This document shows positions 6,256-61,583 of a stretch of DNA of 64,000 nucleotides, one piece after another. The notes under the pieces are model-generated. The model had not been told where the DNA came from. It was given only the letters and a program-made list of their open reading frames with translations, and ran no database searches. The translations under genes were made by a program, and so were the position numbers. Position 1 is the stretch's first letter, and each line of letters begins with the position of its first letter. This stretch comes from Wickerhamiella versatilis (Eukaryota): positions 620,001 to 684,000 of the forward strand of contig JAQOWU010000008.1 in NCBI GenBank assembly GCA_030867685.1. The letters run 5' to 3'.

Positions 6256-6476
6256 ACTGGGTCACGTGAACTACTTGACTAATCCGTGGTCCCACAGAAA
6301 AACTAACCGCCCGTTTGGAACTGGTCGGAAGAGATCCTAACAATATCACCCACAATTAGGAGCGTATCTATCTTAGTCTGCTATTATTCCGGCCCCATTT
6401 GTATTTGATAATATCCATAGAATACATTACCTGGATTTATTATACTGAAGGATCACGCAGAGTCTGACATCTAACC

Positions 6477-6743
6477 ATGTCAGCAGCCAGTGCTCCTGGA
6501 GTGTCGGCATCACGACTTAGGCCTGTTCCACCGCAGCGCGGCTCCTTTCCCATGGATCGGGATGGAGACTGTCTGGAACTTGCCAAGAAGTACCTAGAAT
6601 GCGTAAAGCTTGTGGATGGTGTGAACGCCCCGAATTGCCGCCTGATAGCGAAAAACTACCTTGAATGCCGTATGAGCCATGGTCTAATGGACCGTGATGA
6701 GATGAAGAATCTTGGCTTCAAGTCAGATGAAGAAAAGAAATAG
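6477..6743 (+). CDS. COX19: Twin CX9C cytochrome c oxidase assembly protein
   Basis: [15 protein letters not shown], twin CX9C, YLECRM..GLM...EMKNLGF. Confidence 0.95.
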
Positions 6744-6970
6744 CCCAGCACAATAGCAAATCTATCTTTGGATGGTGATCAAGCCCGTCGCTATTCCTTT
6801 TAGCCGCGTAATAGTGGGCTATCCTGCATTATCCAAACATTTTAAATTTCATTATTTTGTAAATATTTTAACATTTTGAGCTCATCTTATAAATTGAATT
6901 AGTTGAGTGGGCATCATAAAGGTCTAGTGTAGAAGGAACACGTGAAAAAGTATGTGTGAACAACAAACGA

Positions 6971-7067
6971 CTTAAAGATGTTAGTATTCAGAAGGAAGGC
7001 AACGAGAGTATTCAGCATTTTTTAGTGACACTGTGAACTCAGAAAATCGATTCATCATTATACATAC
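6971..7067 (-). other. 97-nt spliceosomal-type intron hosting the snoRNA (non-coding host or GCN1 3'UTR)
   Basis: AAG|GTATGT donor at 7067, perfect TACTAAC branch point (6986-6980), first AG in TTTAAG ending at 6971. The 3' site (AAG) is less certain. Confidence 0.7.
6984..7063 (-). ncRNA. Box C/D snoRNA, snR52/U83-like, predicted guide for 18S Am420 (S. cerevisiae numbering)
   Basis: Minus strand: box C ATGATGA (7058-7052), D' CTGA (7042-7039), C' ATGCTGA (7018-7012), guide GTTGCCTTCCTT, box D CTGA (6991-6988), terminal stem GTAT/ATAC. The guide pairs over 12 nt (one G-U) with conserved 18S AAGGAAGGCAGC, and the D+5 rule points to the A equivalent to Am420. Confidence 0.85.
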
Positions 7068-7402
7068 CTTCACCAATAAAAAGCAGAGAATGCTGCTGAG
7101 TGTGTGTTAAGAAATACTTTCGATTACAAATTAGTCACTTCATACGTCGACCAACCAAATAGTAAGCGCATGAGCTATAGTTTCTAGTACGGTTTTGGCT
7201 CATAAAAATTGCTAGGGAGGACGACTGACAAGGTCAAAAAAATATTTTTATGCAGATAGATTTACTCCTCCGTCACCTTATTTTTTGTCTTGATATATAT
7301 CTTTTTATTTACAGATAAGGCTAAGACGAGACAATGAAATCTACTAATTAATGCTAAGACTAGCTCATGAGAGCGTAAACTCGGCATCTTTTTTTTCACA
7401 AT

Positions 7403-10400
7403 TCAGATTCCTACCACCCATAGTTCATCCAAGTCCTCAGGGGGAGGCGATCTCCGCAAAGCTACCCGACGAACATATTCAGGGATAGATCTTTGAAGCG
7501 TCTGTGGTTCCAATTTAGGCCCGAATCGTTCCATCCAAGCATCAAACCGTGTCGTCGCCTGGCGTCCGAAATCGAAAACACAATAGAAAGTTCTTTCTGC
7601 AGCAAGTTTCACAGGCAAAGATGTTTCACGCACAGCGCCAAATAGTGGTGGAACCAGCTCATCCAAAAACGGATCTAACACCGCTGGATCAGCATCTGCT
7701 GCAGCACCCAATGCTAAGATAGCGAGTCTCCGTGCATCATTGCTACGAGTATCAGACTTAGGAATCACCTTAACAAGAGCATGAAGTGCGTCCGATACAT
7801 CCGGCATGTTAGGTGTTAGAATATATTTGGCCAGTCCAACAACACTGTTCTCTGCGATTGTCGAGGTTTCGCTCATAGATCCTTCGCTCAGTGTTGCTAA
7901 CAAGTTTCCGGCGGTTTCTCTTGCAGATTCAGGTGCGTCCACTAGTTTTGCATTTGCTGCTAGTACCTGAGGCAGTTCAACATTGGCCGAGTCGGTAGCT
8001 CCAGCAGAACCAGTGGCAGCAGCAATACGTGCAGCCAAAGCAATCTCTTTTGGAGAACCATTGATCGAAGCAGCCAGGTCTGCTGCTTTTTCCTTCTGCT
8101 GCTCGCTAAGTTTATCACCAGACTTGACAACGAGCGTATGCAACGACGTGAGCATTGAAAGACGAATCCCGACATCTTCCGTACCCTCCACACCAGAAAT
8201 GAGCTCTTTAGACAACGCATCGGCGCGGGGTTGGAGCGGGATTAGTTCGGCCATGGCTGCCGTTGCCTGTTGTCGTACCTCTGGACTAGTATCCGCAAGA
8301 GATTTCACGAATGTCCGTTGCAGCTGAGGTAAAAATGGCCTTAAAAGCATTGGTATGCGGTTCAAGAGTGTGCCAAGAGTACCCAGGATTGCGGCACGAG
8401 CCTCAGGCGAGGCTCGTTCTCCAACAACCCGAATCAAAGGACCTGTGAGCTGCGTAACACACGAACGCAAAGCCTCTGGAGAGCTCTTAACAACAATATC
8501 TGCCAACGCTAGCGCAGCTGCTTCTCTGTCGGCTGTTAAACCGCTCACAAACAAAGGAAGCATGAATTTCACAGATGTATGAAGACCTGCCAAAGGTGTG
8601 TTGGTCATATGGAGTGCACGATAACCTGGCTGGACAAGCTTCGATAGCTCCTCCTTGGGTAGGCTTGCTATCACTGCCTCAATGAATGCCTGGGCTTCAG
8701 CAAGAGGTTCTTCAAGGGCAAGAATGGCAGTATGTAACCAATCAGCAGTATATACAAAATCCACATGTCCCTTAGAGTATAGAATAGCCATGCGGGCAAG
8801 TATCACGGGTCTCTTAGTACTGTCTGAGCGAGCTATTGTCAGAAGATGGGATTGAGGAGCTTCAACAGCGAGCACCGCATCTAGTTGATCCGTAAATGGC
8901 ATGAGAGCATCCACTATACGCTCAGCATGCTGGCGTACCTCATCAGGGCCAGCGACTTCAGCTAGAGTTGCTATGGCTGCTGCTCTCTCCTCAGTCATAC
9001 CAACATCACCGGTTCGCAAGAGAGTGGGTACAACCATACCAAACGTTTGCGGTGCGGTGTTAAGCATCTCTTCGAGAGCTGCAAGTGCACCTTTATCCCC
9101 GCTACATGTCTGTTCGACCAGACTGGGTAGCAAGTCACCGGCGACATCATCACCAAGAGCATTATGAAGCGCCTCCAACGCTCGTGAAGCTGCCTCACGT
9201 ATACCAGAGCTGCGATCAGTGAGACATGAGCGTACTAGACGTGTAACCCGGTCGGAATAGCTCTGAAGCACATCCACAGGCGTGCTGGGAACAAGGGCAG
9301 CCAGTCCAAGACAAACCCCTTCACGAGCTGCAGGATCACTCGCCAAAGATTCGAGAGTTGGTAGTACAGCATCAAGGGCTCCTGCTACACGACGAACAAG
9401 TTCTGCCAAAGCACGTGCGGCATTCTCTCGGGTTTCTGGATCTGAATCAGATAGTCTGCGTACGAGCGTACGAACAAGAGTCGAAAGTATCGATCTCACA
9501 GTACGCGGCGTATTCTGAACAATAGACATCCAGGTTTCAACAGCAGCGTGACGTACAGCAGAAACGACGTCGGCTCGGCAAATAAAAAGCATGCTTAGCA
9601 CACGGTCTCTGTGCGGGAATTCTGCAGCTGCCGCTGCTTCTGGGACAGTACTCTGATCCTCTGTGTCCTCCTCTTCTTCTCTCTGCACGGCTTCATCCGC
9701 GGCAGCATCTGCGGCTTCTTCTGCTTCCTCTGCATCCCCGGGAGCTGCTTCTGCAATGTTCACTGTATCCTCACGCCCTTGACCAGCGAGCTGTAGCAGC
9801 AGATCACCAACGAGCTCAACGCTACCAAGACGCAAGCGCCAGTTGCTATCACCGAGACCACTTTCAAGCTGGGGAAGAAGAACATCCCGAGCCTTCGTTG
9901 CATAGTTGCGGACGAGGCGACGACCGGCCTTAAGTGATGTTTCACGCACATTTGTATCACTATCACCCAAACCAGAGACGATAGGATCAACCAGATCTCC
10001 AAAGAATGGTGTGAGCTGAGGGCCGAAAACAGTAGGAAGCATTAACAAGAGAGGGGCGAATCCAAGACGTACATGAACCTGGCGACTAGTCCATCCGGCG
10101 AGTAACTCTGGCATGACTTCGGTAAGCCTAGATGTACCGAGACCATGAAGGACCTCAGCGAGGCCTTGAGCAGAGCCCATGCGGTCTGCCGACCGACTAG
10201 GATCCTTGAGGGCCGCGAGCAGATCCGGAATTACCGTGGGGAAGTGCGCTTCACCGAGCTTCTCAACCAGGACACCAAGGGCCTTGCTTGCTGTCGCGCT
10301 GGTTGCTGGAACCGGATCGATCATAGCCTCGCGGAGATCAGGTAAAAGCCTAGGAAGATAAGGTACAAGATCATTCTGGGTAGTCAAAATCGACATACTA

Positions 10401-13400
10401 CCTACTACTCGGCACGCCTTACGTCTTGCGCCCGCGCGACCTCTCATTTCCATACCACGTAGCAGCACTGGAACAACAAGTGCGAGACTGGGACTATCGA
10501 CGAAGTGTACGAAACGCGTCTTAAGTAGACTATCCAAAGCAGCTTCTGTTTTAGCAGGTGGGTCGGAAATAGCTTCAAGAAGAGGCTGAACACATGCCTT
10601 TATTTCTGGGTTTTCAATAACGTCACCGAAGCTGCGAAGCGCTGCCTTTGCAGCTGATCTCACTTCCTTGTGTGTATCACCCAATGCTTGACCAAGTTCA
10701 GGCACCACTACCTGTAATGACGTCGCAAGTTGGCGCGGCCCTAAATAAGCCATAGTTCCTAGAAGCTCTACTGCACCCTTCTTGGCCCTCCATTGGCGAT
10801 CACCCATCCGATCGAGAGCAAGTGGAATGAGTTTCTTGACACCGAGCTGTGTAGTGTGTTGCATAACAGCTCTAGCTGCTGCATTGGCCGCATTGCGCAC
10901 ATTTATCTGGTGATCACCCAGGCCATGCAACACAAGATGCATGAACTCAAGTGCATATGGCTCGAAAATCTTGCCAAGTGTGTGTGCTAGTGCACCAACA
11001 AGCAACTGAGCACCCTCACGAGCAGGAACCTGTTTGTCTTCTACGCCTGCTTGGATGGTCTGAGCTATGCCAAAGTCGCCTATGGCTGTTAGCCCTAGAC
11101 CTTTGACGAGACCAGCCAGCCCCCATGCAGCACCACGCTCACCCTGAAGCACATTCCGCAATAAAACATCTGCAACATCACTCGTGTCAATCTTTTTAGC
11201 AAGCGGGGCAAGACATGATGCGACAGAAAGCTCTAAATTATCGGAACCCAAGTTTGCAACCAGTCTGTCTACAGCCTCTTGAACCCTTGCATCACCTTGA
11301 GGGAGGAACTGGGCCGCTGAGCCATAGAGAATAACATGTGCAGGCAAAGTATCGTCGGTAGCCAACGCAGACAGAAGCCCATCCGTTGCATGATGCGATG
11401 AAATCAAAGTCTTTCCAAATTCTAACGCTTGAGCAGCAACATTTGAATTTTTATCGCGCACTGCATCTACAACAAACTTTGCAAGTCTTATTGGGTTGCT
11501 TGAGTGTGACTGTAAAGACTGGAGTGCACATAGCACGCCACTTCTCACTTTCCAAGGGTCAATACGTGTTCCACGTATCTCGAGTCCGAATTCATCGACA
11601 ACCTTTGGCGCTTCACGATGCTCATTCCAAATGTTGAACAAGCGGTCAATAGTGGGCTCTATATTCCTGTCAGGGTTGAGAGATAGAGCCGCAACAGCAT
11701 AGGCTTTGCCAACCCATTCCCGTACTTCACAATCAAAGAAAGGTTCCAAGCTATCAAGAGCATTAGGAGGTAATTCCATTCTCGACTCTTCCCAGATGGA
11801 AGATGCCACTTCAGCGTTATCACTACTAAAGCGAGCTATCCAGATTTGCGGGCGGAATTCCGTCAAAACTACTTCTGCATCGATGATCTCAAGTGTTGTG
11901 GACCTCGCATATTCATTGGGTCCTATGGTTGTCTGAAGCATTGCTTGAAGTTCATATTCTTCAAAATAGACACCCTGAGCCACACGAGAAAGACAATCGC
12001 GCACACCTTGTGTACCAAGGAGGTCTAGAAGGCTGCTGATCAAATCGCCTCGAGGTATTTCTGCCAGCTGCTCTGCTTCAGTAGCCACTATGTCCAGAGC
12101 GAGCAAAAATGCTTCTTCATGGTCAGGATTAGCGATGCCATTTCGAAGAATTGGGAGAAGATATGCAAGTGAAACAGAATCCAATGGGGTCTGGTCCGCT
12201 AGGGACTTAGCACGGTATAACAAACGGACTAACTGTTCGGTAGGCTTTGAGGCCAAAATAACCTTGGACAATAAAAACTGGAAATTAGAACCGAACCGCG
12301 CAACATTACGAGCCATACCTTGAAGACAATCAGAAGCCATTTGGCCCATAGGGCTTCGGCTGGCCTCTAGAAGAAGTCTCACTGCCTCTGGGAACCATAC
12401 TACTGCCCCTGTGTCTGTCCCATTCGCTTGAGCCAAGCTTAATGTCGTGAGTGCAGCACATGCATGACGTTGAGGCTCCAGTCCAGCTATCTCAACGGAA
12501 TCATTATTACTATTCTTGCTTTCTGCCGCATGCTTTTTGGCAATTTCAGCACGCACCTGTGCATCCCAATCTTCCAAGGATTTACTATTCTGGGATTTCT
12601 TCGGCTTGACTTGTTCAACTTTTTCCTTAGGAACCTCCAGAGGTTTTAAATCCGGTGACAATCGGGCAACTATCGCCTTTGGAACCACATCAGGTGCAAC
12701 AAACGCAATAGTTGTTAGCGCATTGAAAACTTTTGAATCAAGTGATTCCTCTATTATATCCTCATAATTCTTGCGAACAACATCACCGGGATCTAGTCCA
12801 GATTGAAGACATAGTCTGATCCAGTCACATTGACAAGCATGCGCGAGCACACAGACCCTGGGAATTGCTTCCGGTGAACCTGCAAATGCGCCCATAAGTG
12901 CTTTCGGATTCTTCACTTTTTTCGCGATATCAACCAGAGGACAACCCAGAGATGATGGATGAGCTGATATAACTTCAGACAACAGCTTTCTGGTGGAAAG
13001 CTGAGACTTTATAGGCCCCGTGCTGGCCACATGAGCCAGGAGAGGCAGGGCGTATGGATCACCAGTGTGCCTTAAAGTCTTAGCAGCTGCCAGAGCCGCA
13101 ACATCATAATCCTCAGGTACTAGATGCTCATATTCTTTGTATAAGGCCACAGAAGGTTCTGCCGCTCCTAAAAGCTCTGCCGCAAATGACGCACCAAGCC
13201 CCGATGCTGCAATCGGCGAGCTGACGATTTGGTCATGCACCGAACGCAATATCTGTTTCAATTCCTCGGGTGTCTCTGCCACGGACAAAAGGGCGTAAGC
13301 CCACTCTCTTCTTAACGGTGGACGCGAGTTTAGGCCAAGCTTAAAAGCCTGTACCGCTCTGTCCCGGGGTAGCAAACGCCCTAATGCATGAGTGAAAGGA

Positions 13401-14494
13401 ACTATACCTGCCTCTGTCACTTCCTTAGACGCTGCAGTAGCTAAAGCATCCGCCAATTTATCACTAGGTTCACCATCCTCCAATATATAGGCTGCTAATG
13501 CCGCCTCTTTCCGCTGTGAAAGTAAAGGCAACACCTTATCAGTCTCCGATGGGCATTTCTGAATTATCTTCCTCCAAACACGCTGTGCAGCATGCCTAGT
13601 CTTCTCATTTGATGACGAAAGGCTCGACTTCAAGCTTGGGCTTAAAGCATTGGCAAGAGATGTTATATTCAAAGCTTTCACACGCTCGAGAATGCTTGGA
13701 AGTACCTCGGGCAATATTGTCTCTGGAGAACGTAGTACACTACGTTGTAGCGCTGGGACAAAATTTTCAAATTGTGCCTGTTCCACTAGCTCAAACATTG
13801 GGGATAACGCATGTACAAATGACGAATCCAACTTTTTAGCCTGCAAAACCTCTTGAGAATAGTTCTCAAGCCATTTATCTATATGATTCTTGAGCTCTGA
13901 CTCACGAGGTAACCCGGCAAGGGCCTCGGCCAACTGAGCAACAACAAGTAAGTCACTCCAAGTGCTCAGTGGTCTTTTGGATGCTGCCTTGCGAAGGCTT
14001 GCTCGTGTATGCCGCAATGCACTATTTTCAAGATGTCTTCGTGATATCGTAACTGCTTTACGCAATAAATCTGCCTGTAATTTCACAAGAGGCTCAATAT
14101 TAGGAGCCTCCGTAGTTTCCAGCACTCCGTTGACCCAGTCTAAGTAAAGAACATAGTCCGAAGGAGCCTGTGAGGAGGGCAGATTCCTAAAAGCAGTCAA
14201 TACTTGATCATAGTCTACTAGACAAGCACGCTCGAGAGAGCTCTGCGATAATTTTCTCAAAGCCCCGCTATCGCTAATGACGGGCCCTAGCTTGACGACC
14301 TCTATAGGCGGACAATCACTCTCAAGCAAGTCCACCAGCGTTCTTCGATCCATCGCACTGCTCACCAAGCAGGTGTGTAATAAGCCGTCGCTGGGATTTT
14401 TTTCACTCATCACAACTAAACCAGTCGATGATGAATGATGAATAAATCCTTGAAGTTCGCCACTTGAGGCATGGACAGTGTAGAGATCTGGCAT
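7403..14494 (-). CDS. GCN1: HEAT-repeat translational activator of Gcn2
   Basis: QWRAKKGAVELLGTMAY, FVHFVDSPSLAL, Gcn2-binding TGPLIRVVGER, LRPFLPQLQRTFVKSL. The true start may be a downstream Met (e.g. MDRRTL). Confidence 0.96.
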   Translation of the reverse strand: MPDLYTVHASSGELQGFIHHSSSTGLVVMSEKNPSDGLLHTCLVSSAMDRRTLVDLLESDCPPIEVVKLGPVISDSGALRKLSQSSLERACLVDYDQVLTAFRNLPSSQAPSDYVLYLDWVNGVLETTEAPNIEPLVKLQADLLRKAVTISRRHLENSALRHTRASLRKAASKRPLSTWSDLLVVAQLAEALAGLPRESELKNHIDKWLENYSQEVLQAKKLDSSFVHALSPMFELVEQAQFENFVPALQRSVLRSPETILPEVLPSILERVKALNITSLANALSPSLKSSLSSSNEKTRHAAQRVWRKIIQKCPSETDKVLPLLSQRKEAALAAYILEDGEPSDKLADALATAASKEVTEAGIVPFTHALGRLLPRDRAVQAFKLGLNSRPPLRREWAYALLSVAETPEELKQILRSVHDQIVSSPIAASGLGASFAAELLGAAEPSVALYKEYEHLVPEDYDVAALAAAKTLRHTGDPYALPLLAHVASTGPIKSQLSTRKLLSEVISAHPSSLGCPLVDIAKKVKNPKALMGAFAGSPEAIPRVCVLAHACQCDWIRLCLQSGLDPGDVVRKNYEDIIEESLDSKVFNALTTIAFVAPDVVPKAIVARLSPDLKPLEVPKEKVEQVKPKKSQNSKSLEDWDAQVRAEIAKKHAAESKNSNNDSVEIAGLEPQRHACAALTTLSLAQANGTDTGAVVWFPEAVRLLLEASRSPMGQMASDCLQGMARNVARFGSNFQFLLSKVILASKPTEQLVRLLYRAKSLADQTPLDSVSLAYLLPILRNGIANPDHEEAFLLALDIVATEAEQLAEIPRGDLISSLLDLLGTQGVRDCLSRVAQGVYFEEYELQAMLQTTIGPNEYARSTTLEIIDAEVVLTEFRPQIWIARFSSDNAEVASSIWEESRMELPPNALDSLEPFFDCEVREWVGKAYAVAALSLNPDRNIEPTIDRLFNIWNEHREAPKVVDEFGLEIRGTRIDPWKVRSGVLCALQSLQSHSSNPIRLAKFVVDAVRDKNSNVAAQALEFGKTLISSHHATDGLLSALATDDTLPAHVILYGSAAQFLPQGDARVQEAVDRLVANLGSDNLELSVASCLAPLAKKIDTSDVADVLLRNVLQGERGAAWGLAGLVKGLGLTAIGDFGIAQTIQAGVEDKQVPAREGAQLLVGALAHTLGKIFEPYALEFMHLVLHGLGDHQINVRNAANAAARAVMQHTTQLGVKKLIPLALDRMGDRQWRAKKGAVELLGTMAYLGPRQLATSLQVVVPELGQALGDTHKEVRSAAKAALRSFGDVIENPEIKACVQPLLEAISDPPAKTEAALDSLLKTRFVHFVDSPSLALVVPVLLRGMEMRGRAGARRKACRVVGSMSILTTQNDLVPYLPRLLPDLREAMIDPVPATSATASKALGVLVEKLGEAHFPTVIPDLLAALKDPSRSADRMGSAQGLAEVLHGLGTSRLTEVMPELLAGWTSRQVHVRLGFAPLLLMLPTVFGPQLTPFFGDLVDPIVSGLGDSDTNVRETSLKAGRRLVRNYATKARDVLLPQLESGLGDSNWRLRLGSVELVGDLLLQLAGQGREDTVNIAEAAPGDAEEAEEAADAAADEAVQREEEEDTEDQSTVPEAAAAAEFPHRDRVLSMLFICRADVVSAVRHAAVETWMSIVQNTPRTVRSILSTLVRTLVRRLSDSDPETRENAARALAELVRRVAGALDAVLPTLESLASDPAAREGVCLGLAALVPSTPVDVLQSYSDRVTRLVRSCLTDRSSGIREAASRALEALHNALGDDVAGDLLPSLVEQTCSGDKGALAALEEMLNTAPQTFGMVVPTLLRTGDVGMTEERAAAIATLAEVAGPDEVRQHAERIVDALMPFTDQLDAVLAVEAPQSHLLTIARSDSTKRPVILARMAILYSKGHVDFVYTADWLHTAILALEEPLAEAQAFIEAVIASLPKEELSKLVQPGYRALHMTNTPLAGLHTSVKFMLPLFVSGLTADREAAALALADIVVKSSPEALRSCVTQLTGPLIRVVGERASPEARAAILGTLGTLLNRIPMLLRPFLPQLQRTFVKSLADTSPEVRQQATAAMAELIPLQPRADALSKELISGVEGTEDVGIRLSMLTSLHTLVVKSGDKLSEQQKEKAADLAASINGSPKEIALAARIAAATGSAGATDSANVELPQVLAANAKLVDAPESARETAGNLLATLSEGSMSETSTIAENSVVGLAKYILTPNMPDVSDALHALVKVIPKSDTRSNDARRLAILALGAAADADPAVLDPFLDELVPPLFGAVRETSLPVKLAAERTFYCVFDFGRQATTRFDAWMERFGPKLEPQTLQRSIPEYVRRVALRRSPPPEDLDELWVVGI

Positions 14495-61365: not shown

Positions 61366-61437
61366 CTCAGCGACCGGGAATCGAACCCGGATCCCCCGCG
61401 TGACAGGCGGAAATTCTTACCGTTAAACTATCGCTGA
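61366..61437 (-). tRNA. tRNA-Asp(GUC)
   Basis: 72 nt; TCAGCGA/TCGCTGA acceptor, CT-GTC-AC loop, GGTTCGATTCC, T-run terminator. Confidence 0.96.
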
Positions 61438-61511: not shown

Positions 61512-61583
61512 CTCAGCGACCGGGAATCGAACCCGGATCCCCCGCGTGACAGGCGGAAATTCTTACCGTTAAACTATCGCTGA
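61512..61583 (-). tRNA. tRNA-Asp(GUC), identical tandem copy
   Basis: Identical to 61366-61437, offset by 146 bp. Confidence 0.96.

Follow-up and report, generated by a model that had tools for sequence, protein, structure and literature searches.

The question raised by positions 6971..7067 (minus strand) of the window, by which we mean the whole 64-kb stretch of DNA analyzed, is how a box C/D snoRNA can be delivered from an intron that leaves almost no room around it. In the standing model, the snoRNP assembles while splicing is under way, and an intronic C/D snoRNA for this reason requires some distance between itself and the branch point. The reading we prefer, at a probability of about 0.7, is that a short non-coding RNA starting at 7108 delivers a snoRNA of the snR52/U83 type by way of a single 97-nt intron, with the kink-turn assembling after splicing. 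The original prediction, which described a minimal unit in which the snoRNA is the intron, was right about the layout but missed that it is common in this genome and unlike that of orthologues elsewhere.

The spliceosomal intron that encloses the snoRNA occupies 6971..7067 (97 nt; junction reads 6970-7068, ends CT..AC), and all of its elements lie on the minus strand. The 5′ splice site GUAUGU (GTATGT in the DNA, 7062..7067) is separated by a 3-nt spacer from a perfect RUGAUGA box C (7052..7058). Box D′ (CUGA, 7039..7042), 9 nt after box C, and box C′ (7012..7018, one mismatch) align with the D′ and C′ columns of 20 orthologues. A scan for guide duplexes places a 12-nt guide to 18S rRNA 406-417 at 6992..7003, followed by box D (CUGA, 6988..6991), a single A, and the branch heptamer UACUAAC (TACTAAC, 6980..6986). 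The predicted branch A at 6981 lies 6 nt past box D. The AAG acceptor (6971..6973), which the reads show to be used in vivo, is the first AG, 10 nt past the branch A. From box C to box D the snoRNA core measures 71 nt, with both boxes perfect, and falls within the 60-130 nt span of the box C/D class.

The boundaries of the intron are shared with the snoRNA. Register comparison gives a terminal (kink-turn) stem of 4 bp with a 1-nt bulge, whose 5′ arm (7060..7063) is also present in the predicted fold and whose 3′ arm is 6987-6984. Two of the four pairs use donor letters +5/+6, which thus double as stem letters, and three use the UAC of the branch heptamer. The order of elements, the 3-nt gap between donor and box C, the single A before TACTAAC, and the use of TAC in the stem had all been described in the original prediction and were found as described; the part played by the donor letters had gone unnoted. 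The whole-intron fold is no more stable than shuffled sequences (z = 0.01). The strict layout was observed once and arose in none of 641 Markov resamplings of the window, while a looser pattern arose 13 times in the same 641; within the 64-kb window the arrangement occurs only once.

Judged from its sequence, the RNA of this locus is a box C/D snoRNA of the snR52/U83 (SNORD83) type with a single guide. A search with the snR52 and U83 models, which had been proposed as a check, does rank this family first, the best Rfam match being snoZ13_snr52 (28.1 bits, E 0.0057), but the score lies below the gathering score of 47. The snR52 models RF00335 and RF01195 reach 28.1 of 47 and 21.5 of 45 bits, respectively, and there are weaker matches to the U83 and snR52 models. 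At gathering level, the Rfam scan of the window returned two tRNAs and no snoRNA. Two identical tandem tRNA genes with a GUC anticodon are found at 61366-61437 and 61512-61583 (minus strand). The locus carries a warning for annotation, as the snoRNA falls under the Rfam thresholds and the host is invisible to ORF-based annotation.

The target is present in the 18S of this genome (9.88 Mb, 8 contigs), of which two copies are assembled. The guide forms a 12-bp duplex (one G-U) with the genome's own 18S, as had been anticipated for an snR52-type guide, and by the D+5 rule 2′-O-methylation is predicted at A410. This site corresponds to S. pombe Am423 and N. crassa Am417, and the duplex exceeds the 10 bp of D guide that define the orthologue group. 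As originally proposed, there is no second guide above chance (best score 9, against 8-10 in 15 shuffles), and the D′ box has no guide detected above shuffles. The SNR52 gene of S. cerevisiae, a Pol III unit, has a box A/B leader and carries a second guide that targets 25S. Here the search for Pol III signals gave no box B and one loose box A, upstream of the host start. A double-guide Pol III unit of the S. cerevisiae type was rejected, there being neither box B nor a second guide to 25S.

For region 6301-7800 the analysis used four of 13 listed runs, namely three sets of RNA reads and one of contigs. The strain sequenced is a different one that carries an identical species label (divergence about 5%), and the libraries are poly(A) or long-insert. 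The exact 97-nt GU..AAG joint is present in 18 reads (14 starts) of run X11 and 8 reads (8 starts) of run X12, so that the predicted intron is real and both splicing steps are completed at GU..AAG. Run X8 has no junction reads at a depth of about 5, too thin to bear on splicing, and the X1 contigs, in which the unspliced intron is present throughout, likewise have no bearing on it. The strain differences listed number none in 6975-7070 against seven in 6936-6974, which counts in favor of the preferred reading. Two further candidates found no joint in the reads: an alternative acceptor at 6924, and a 29-nt intron-like motif at 7145-7117 (minus strand; donor-like, branch-like, AAG), which lies upstream of the host start. 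Most reads retain the intron, with 18 junction reads against an intron depth of about 47 in X11 and 8 against about 35 in X12. Unspliced cover at the exon 1-intron and intron-exon 2 boundaries is about 36 and 32 in X11 and about 20 and 27 in X12. Such retention fits slow spliceosome assembly and, equally, loss of a very short spliced product.

The transcript that hosts the intron has its own start. In 24 reads of X11 the template-switch adapter appears as a loose end behind 7108, minus-strand reads prevail at 7051-7100 (42.5 vs 8.6), and X11 depth drops from 51 to 17 above 7100. The short side of spliced reads measures at most 45 and 41 nt. Exon 1 spans 7068..7108 (minus strand, 41 nt), as set by the adapter reads and the ends of spliced reads. 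Exon 2 spans 6900..6970 (minus strand), with a 3′ end at roughly 6895-6935 as estimated from depth and read starts. As the original prediction of a host devoid of an ORF had it, exon 1 has no ATG, and the next 110 nt contain ATG frames of just 5-7 codons. The host is a separate short non-coding RNA with its own start and no ORF.

The original prediction had left the host as either a dedicated non-coding transcript or the 3′UTR of GCN1. The own 5′ end at 7108 supports the former. The GCN1 coding sequence (7403..14494, minus strand; domains identified) ends 336 nt upstream of the intron on the same strand, and between 7151 and 7250 a residual depth of 10-11 (X11) and 19-23 (X12) persists, the latter comparable to the locus itself. 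Both observations would suit an intron within a long GCN1 3′UTR. However, the main GCN1 mRNA ends near 7293, where many molecules stop, the short side of spliced reads never extends beyond 45 nt, and the adapter ends at 7108 come with the minus-strand bias typical of a 5′ end. GCN1 mRNA is therefore very unlikely to be the main host, though low-level read-through from GCN1 into the locus is possible. On the other side, a convergent 88-aa twin-cysteine gene (6477..6743, plus strand; no Pfam match), which we take to be COX19-like, has its poly(A) site near 6876-6894. A SGF73-like gene contains a predicted short intron at 6371-6430 (minus strand) with a GTAATG donor and a GACTAAG-like branch, where read cover is too low to judge it.

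The tight layout is found well beyond snR52. Pattern searches of the genome yielded 19 introns with a C/D snoRNA, the snR52 locus included: 15 of the 27 matches of one pattern, 3 of the 22 matches of another (plus one duplicate), and one from a third. Pattern matches that had no box C near the donor or no guide were dropped. RNA evidence in this analysis concerns the snR52 locus among the 19. In this set, which is biased because the patterns required tight spacing, the donor lies 1-19 nt from box C (median 4), the gap between box D and the branch A amounts to 4-11 nt in all 19 selected introns (median 8), and the intron is 87-152 nt long (median 105), with a median of 26 nt that is not snoRNA. 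For twelve of the 19, Rfam gives a snoRNA family with E ≤ 0.05 (snR52, U14, snR38, snR79, snR13, U18, snR76, snR78, snR73, SNORD36, snR67, and U24), five of these above the gathering score. Another six were identified by rRNA guides of 11-14 bp, and one (L027) is weak. Terminal stems matched to their own loci sum to 54 bp; the 5000 permutations average 14, and none of them reached 54. The stem takes in donor letters at 9 of the 19 loci and branch letters at 7; at 8 loci it is under 3 bp in the kink-turn register. Four of the 19 introns lie in coding genes with IMPDH, GST_C, tRNA-endonuclease, and WD40 domains, and their removal reopens the frames exactly. The last three hosts are presumably TEF4-like, SEN2-like, and ASC1-like, respectively. 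Within the limits of a pattern-biased set, the tight layout appears to be how C/D snoRNA introns are ordinarily built in this genome, and nothing peculiar to snR52.

Other searches added little. Guide-only searches for clusters II and III gave 13 and 2 matches, all of them rDNA or chance; for one of those 13 sites, the splice-blind scan alone was used. That scan covered 550 kb of DNA with some redundancy and yielded a single further snoRNA, an exonic one, besides several chance matches. A loose pattern of donor plus box C was dropped (345 matches vs 295 in the control), and a long-range pattern of box C, box D, and branch gave 18 matches but no donor-adjacent snoRNA. Ordinary internal introns, a thin baseline, number four (48, 56, 65, and 182 nt).

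Several of these loci have features of their own. The tightest case found is L120 (contig C8:1539043-1539144, minus strand), an snR79 intron right after the ATG of the SEN2-like gene, in which box D abuts ACTAAC and lies 4 nt from the branch A. At L027 (contig C8:758129-758403, minus strand), an snR190-like intron and a U14 intron overlap by one G that belongs to both acceptor and donor; an exon of -1 nt would imply nested splicing. L088 (contig C8:481007-481570, minus strand) is cluster I with snR78, snR77-like, snR76, and snR73 introns, where snR78 is followed by an exon of 1 nt and neither snR75 nor snR72 was found. The cluster also contains an snR74-like snoRNA in an exon; its box D stops 2 nt short of the snR73 donor, such that step 1 of snR73 splicing would cut beside the 3′ end of the snR74-like snoRNA. 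The snoRNA intron L102 (contig C1:377784-377884, plus strand) has a 14-nt match to 25S and an AAG acceptor, and no Rfam family matches it at E ≤ 10. L112 (contig C7:2126628-2126721, plus strand) is an snR71-like intron at a frame end, with a stop one codon past the junction. A fungal SRP RNA (72.3 bits, above the gathering score) is found at L146:1829-2058 (minus strand).

The genome-wide set bears on what splicing contributes at the snR52 locus. The telomerase RNA of S. pombe is released by spliceosomal cleavage, with step 1 only. The original prediction took the weak AAG acceptor as a hint that only step 1 may matter here; on such a reading the AAG would be a deliberately poor acceptor. AAG is indeed a minority acceptor, absent from all four ordinary internal introns, and junction reads are a minority. 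Yet the exons are ligated at AAG in two runs, X11 has no excess of cover across the intron-exon 2 boundary (32 vs about 36, with 27 vs about 20 in X12), and the four coding introns restore their frames. Among the 19 snoRNA introns the first acceptor is CAG in nine, AAG in five, and TAG in five, and the 10 nt from branch to AG at snR52 fall inside the range of 3-11 nt for the set. The suggestion does not hold up, and we consider a step-1-only role highly improbable.

In a second alternative, the main source of the snoRNA would be precursor that has not been spliced, processed through decapping or endonuclease cleavage and then trimming; early Snu13 binding would block splicing, and splicing would be a side or disposal route. 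The predominance of intron-retaining reads would fit such a route. Extracts of two papers lend it precedent, as snoRNA processing can be independent of splicing (PMC5033589) and Snu13 binds precursors early in S. cerevisiae (PMC6426285). Since unspliced cover is similar at both splice sites (X11 about 36 and 32), any block would precede step 1. The splice signals, however, are perfect at snR52 and at the 18 other loci, and the four coding hosts need splicing. The whole-precursor fold is no more stable than shuffles, with no unusually stable flanking hairpin (z = 0.05). A low junction count is explained as well by the spliced product itself, which at about 100-150 nt is disfavored by libraries of this kind and likely unstable. 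We regard the precursor route as unlikely and favor release by splicing.

The orthologues found elsewhere do not have this spacing. Metagenome contigs were searched, blind to splicing, for a box C combined with the snR52 guide and a box D, which gave at least 119 loci, with 105 distinct cores among the matches listed; these are environmental eukaryotes, budding yeasts may be missing, and the branch points are predicted. Among the matches listed, 54 orthologues have a donor-like hexamer and a branch-plus-YAG within 300 nt, and box D lies 34-66 nt from the branch A in 45 of these and 123-264 nt in the other 9. None of the 105 cores among the matches listed has a distance below 34 nt; a CTRAY motif by itself, at most 20 nt away from box D, is found in 2 of the 105, where shuffling predicts 7.3. 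Introns could be clearly predicted for 42 orthologues among the matches listed, and their medians are 40 nt on the donor side, 54 nt on the branch side, and 202 nt for the intron, as opposed to 3 nt from the donor and 6 nt to the branch A here. On the preferred reading, this genome would have dropped the stretch of about 50 nt that separates box D from the branch point.

Under splicing-dependent release, Pol II would transcribe the host, and the spliceosome would assemble on an intron whose signals are also snoRNA. The footprints of U1/U6 and U2/SF3 cover the donor and branch regions. With the spliceosome on donor and branch site, the terminal stem of the snoRNA could not form; kink-turn assembly and U2 binding should be mutually exclusive in principle. 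Two of the four stem pairs take donor letters, three take branch letters, and the branch A is 6 nt away from box D; for these reasons, assembly of the kink-turn would be expected after splicing. Snu13, then Nop58/Nop56/Nop1, would load on the released lariat or the debranched intron, an order that we infer from the geometry alone. The 2′-5′ bond of the lariat would close a 7-nt loop on the stem end and keep boxes C and D together. Dbr1, a domain of which is present in the genome, would then open the lariat, and about 4 nt at the 5′ side and about 14 nt at the 3′ side would be trimmed. The product would be a 77-80-nt snoRNP guiding 2′-O-methylation of 18S A410. The usual mature ends of C/D snoRNAs, and their trimming, are established processing. 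On this count, the claim that splicing nearly defines both snoRNA ends is sustained for the 5′ end, about 4 nt off, but not for the 3′ end, where about 14 nt would be left to trim.

It is also conceivable that what persists is no trimmed snoRNA but the 87-nt lariat, never debranched, or else the whole intron in linear form, similar to slb-snoRNAs and snotrons. By its geometry the lariat is nearly all snoRNA and the branch closes the stem, and such RNAs exist in vertebrates (extracts of PMC8609340 and PMC10948791). However, slb-snoRNAs do not guide methylation and favor C branch points (extract of PMC8609340), whereas this locus has a canonical A branch and an intact guide in a genome with DBR1. 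A stable lariat as the end product thus seems extremely unlikely beside the debranched and trimmed snoRNA proposed above.

The absence of spacers could be connected with a splicing factor. In mammals, the optimum position 40-50 nt upstream of the branch point is tied to Aquarius/IBP160 (extracts of PMC10234308 and PMC8162545), and distance is a weak predictor across human snoRNAs, mostly as many lie farther away (extract of PMC10234308). The Saccharomycetaceae lack Ibp160, whereas most of the other budding yeasts surveyed possess it (YALI0C24079 in Y. lipolytica), and the departure of snoRNAs from introns has been connected with losing it (extract of PMC6351623). A search of the present genome for the N-terminal Aquarius/Ibp160 domain (PF16399) gave no candidate, with the positive control silent and the proteins divergent. 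We hypothesize a link between Ibp160 loss and spacer collapse. Vincenti et al. (2007) reportedly found a position effect in S. cerevisiae, which suggests that Ibp160 loss alone would not be enough.

Non-coding hosts, intronic snR52, and compaction of exons are already in print. Collapse of both intron spacers was not found in the literature searched, although Mitrovich 2010, Vincenti 2007, and Marck 2006 could contain it, and sequence figures for S. pombe, Y. lipolytica, and D. hansenii (PMC4138321, PMC3596301, both in extract) may show spacings. With at least 19 introns of this design, and at least one that is spliced despite a 6-nt gap, the genome offers a natural test of the time and place of kink-turn assembly, of whether the spacer serves Aquarius alone, and of the minimum size of a snoRNA-producing intron. 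A wider proposal, which we put forward tentatively and hold to be doubtful, is that this lineage has a splicing-defined snoRNA biogenesis, a counterpart of mirtrons: Aquarius/Ibp160 was lost, introns shrank onto C/D snoRNAs, splice signals serve as stem, the bond in the lariat closes the kink-turn in advance, and snoRNP assembly can begin only once the spliceosome has left. If so, premature binding of free Snu13 would block splicing, tying the IMPDH, TEF4, ASC1, and SEN2 hosts to snoRNP supply.

Two of the closest known relatives of this snoRNA are themselves intronic. The S. pombe snR52 is intronic, targets 18S Am423, and has the 3′ guide only (extract of PMC4138321); N. crassa CD42 lies in an intron and targets 18S Am417 (extract of PMC2780460). 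The single D guide, its target, and the intronic state are thus common to all three and are no novelty of the present locus. With fungal snR52 and human U83 as the comparison, the snoRNA here is shorter (71 nt vs about 85) and its spacers are gone. In extracts of PMC5033589, snR52 is given as a 'non-genic exon' in four Candida CTG-clade species. S. cerevisiae SNR52 and Candida snR52 share the 18S guide, but here the snoRNA is intronic and spliced, with neither box B nor second guide.

Intronic C/D snoRNAs in fungal non-coding hosts are also said to have been described by Mitrovich et al. in Science in 2010. Mono- and polycistronic hosts of this kind are found in Candida, Yarrowia, fission yeasts, and filamentous fungi (extracts of PMC5033589, PMC3596301, and PMC4138321), and with them the locus shares an ORF-less host, release by splicing, and tiny or negative exons. 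The hosts of several families are the same as well (IMPDH, TEF4-like, ASC1-like, and SEN2-like). In Candida cluster II, exons of -1 and 1 nt separate snoRNAs of about 80-95 nt that start 201-218 nt apart (extract of PMC5033589), a spacing that implies over 100 nt of spacer in those introns. The -1-nt exon of L027 therefore has a counterpart there, while snR190 and U14 are listed as exonic in Candida. In the published systems it is the exons that are compacted; here it is the non-snoRNA part of the intron, with a median of 26 nt. Intronic C/D snoRNPs of the Aquarius/IBP160-coupled class also depend on release by splicing, but the 40-50 nt spacer that they need is absent here, where 6 nt are found.

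In mirtrons, the ends of the small RNA are set by the ends of the intron. Mirtrons, snotrons, and slb-snoRNAs resemble the present locus in having a small RNA with ends at or near intron ends, with the difference from mirtrons that trimming would still be required here. According to the extracts cited, snotrons (PMC10948791) and slb-snoRNAs (PMC8609340) are untrimmed by-products beside a normal snoRNA, whereas here the spacers are deleted in the gene itself. In Saccharomyces, C/D snoRNAs moved out of introns; in the tentative mirtron-like reading, it is the introns that would have shrunk around them.
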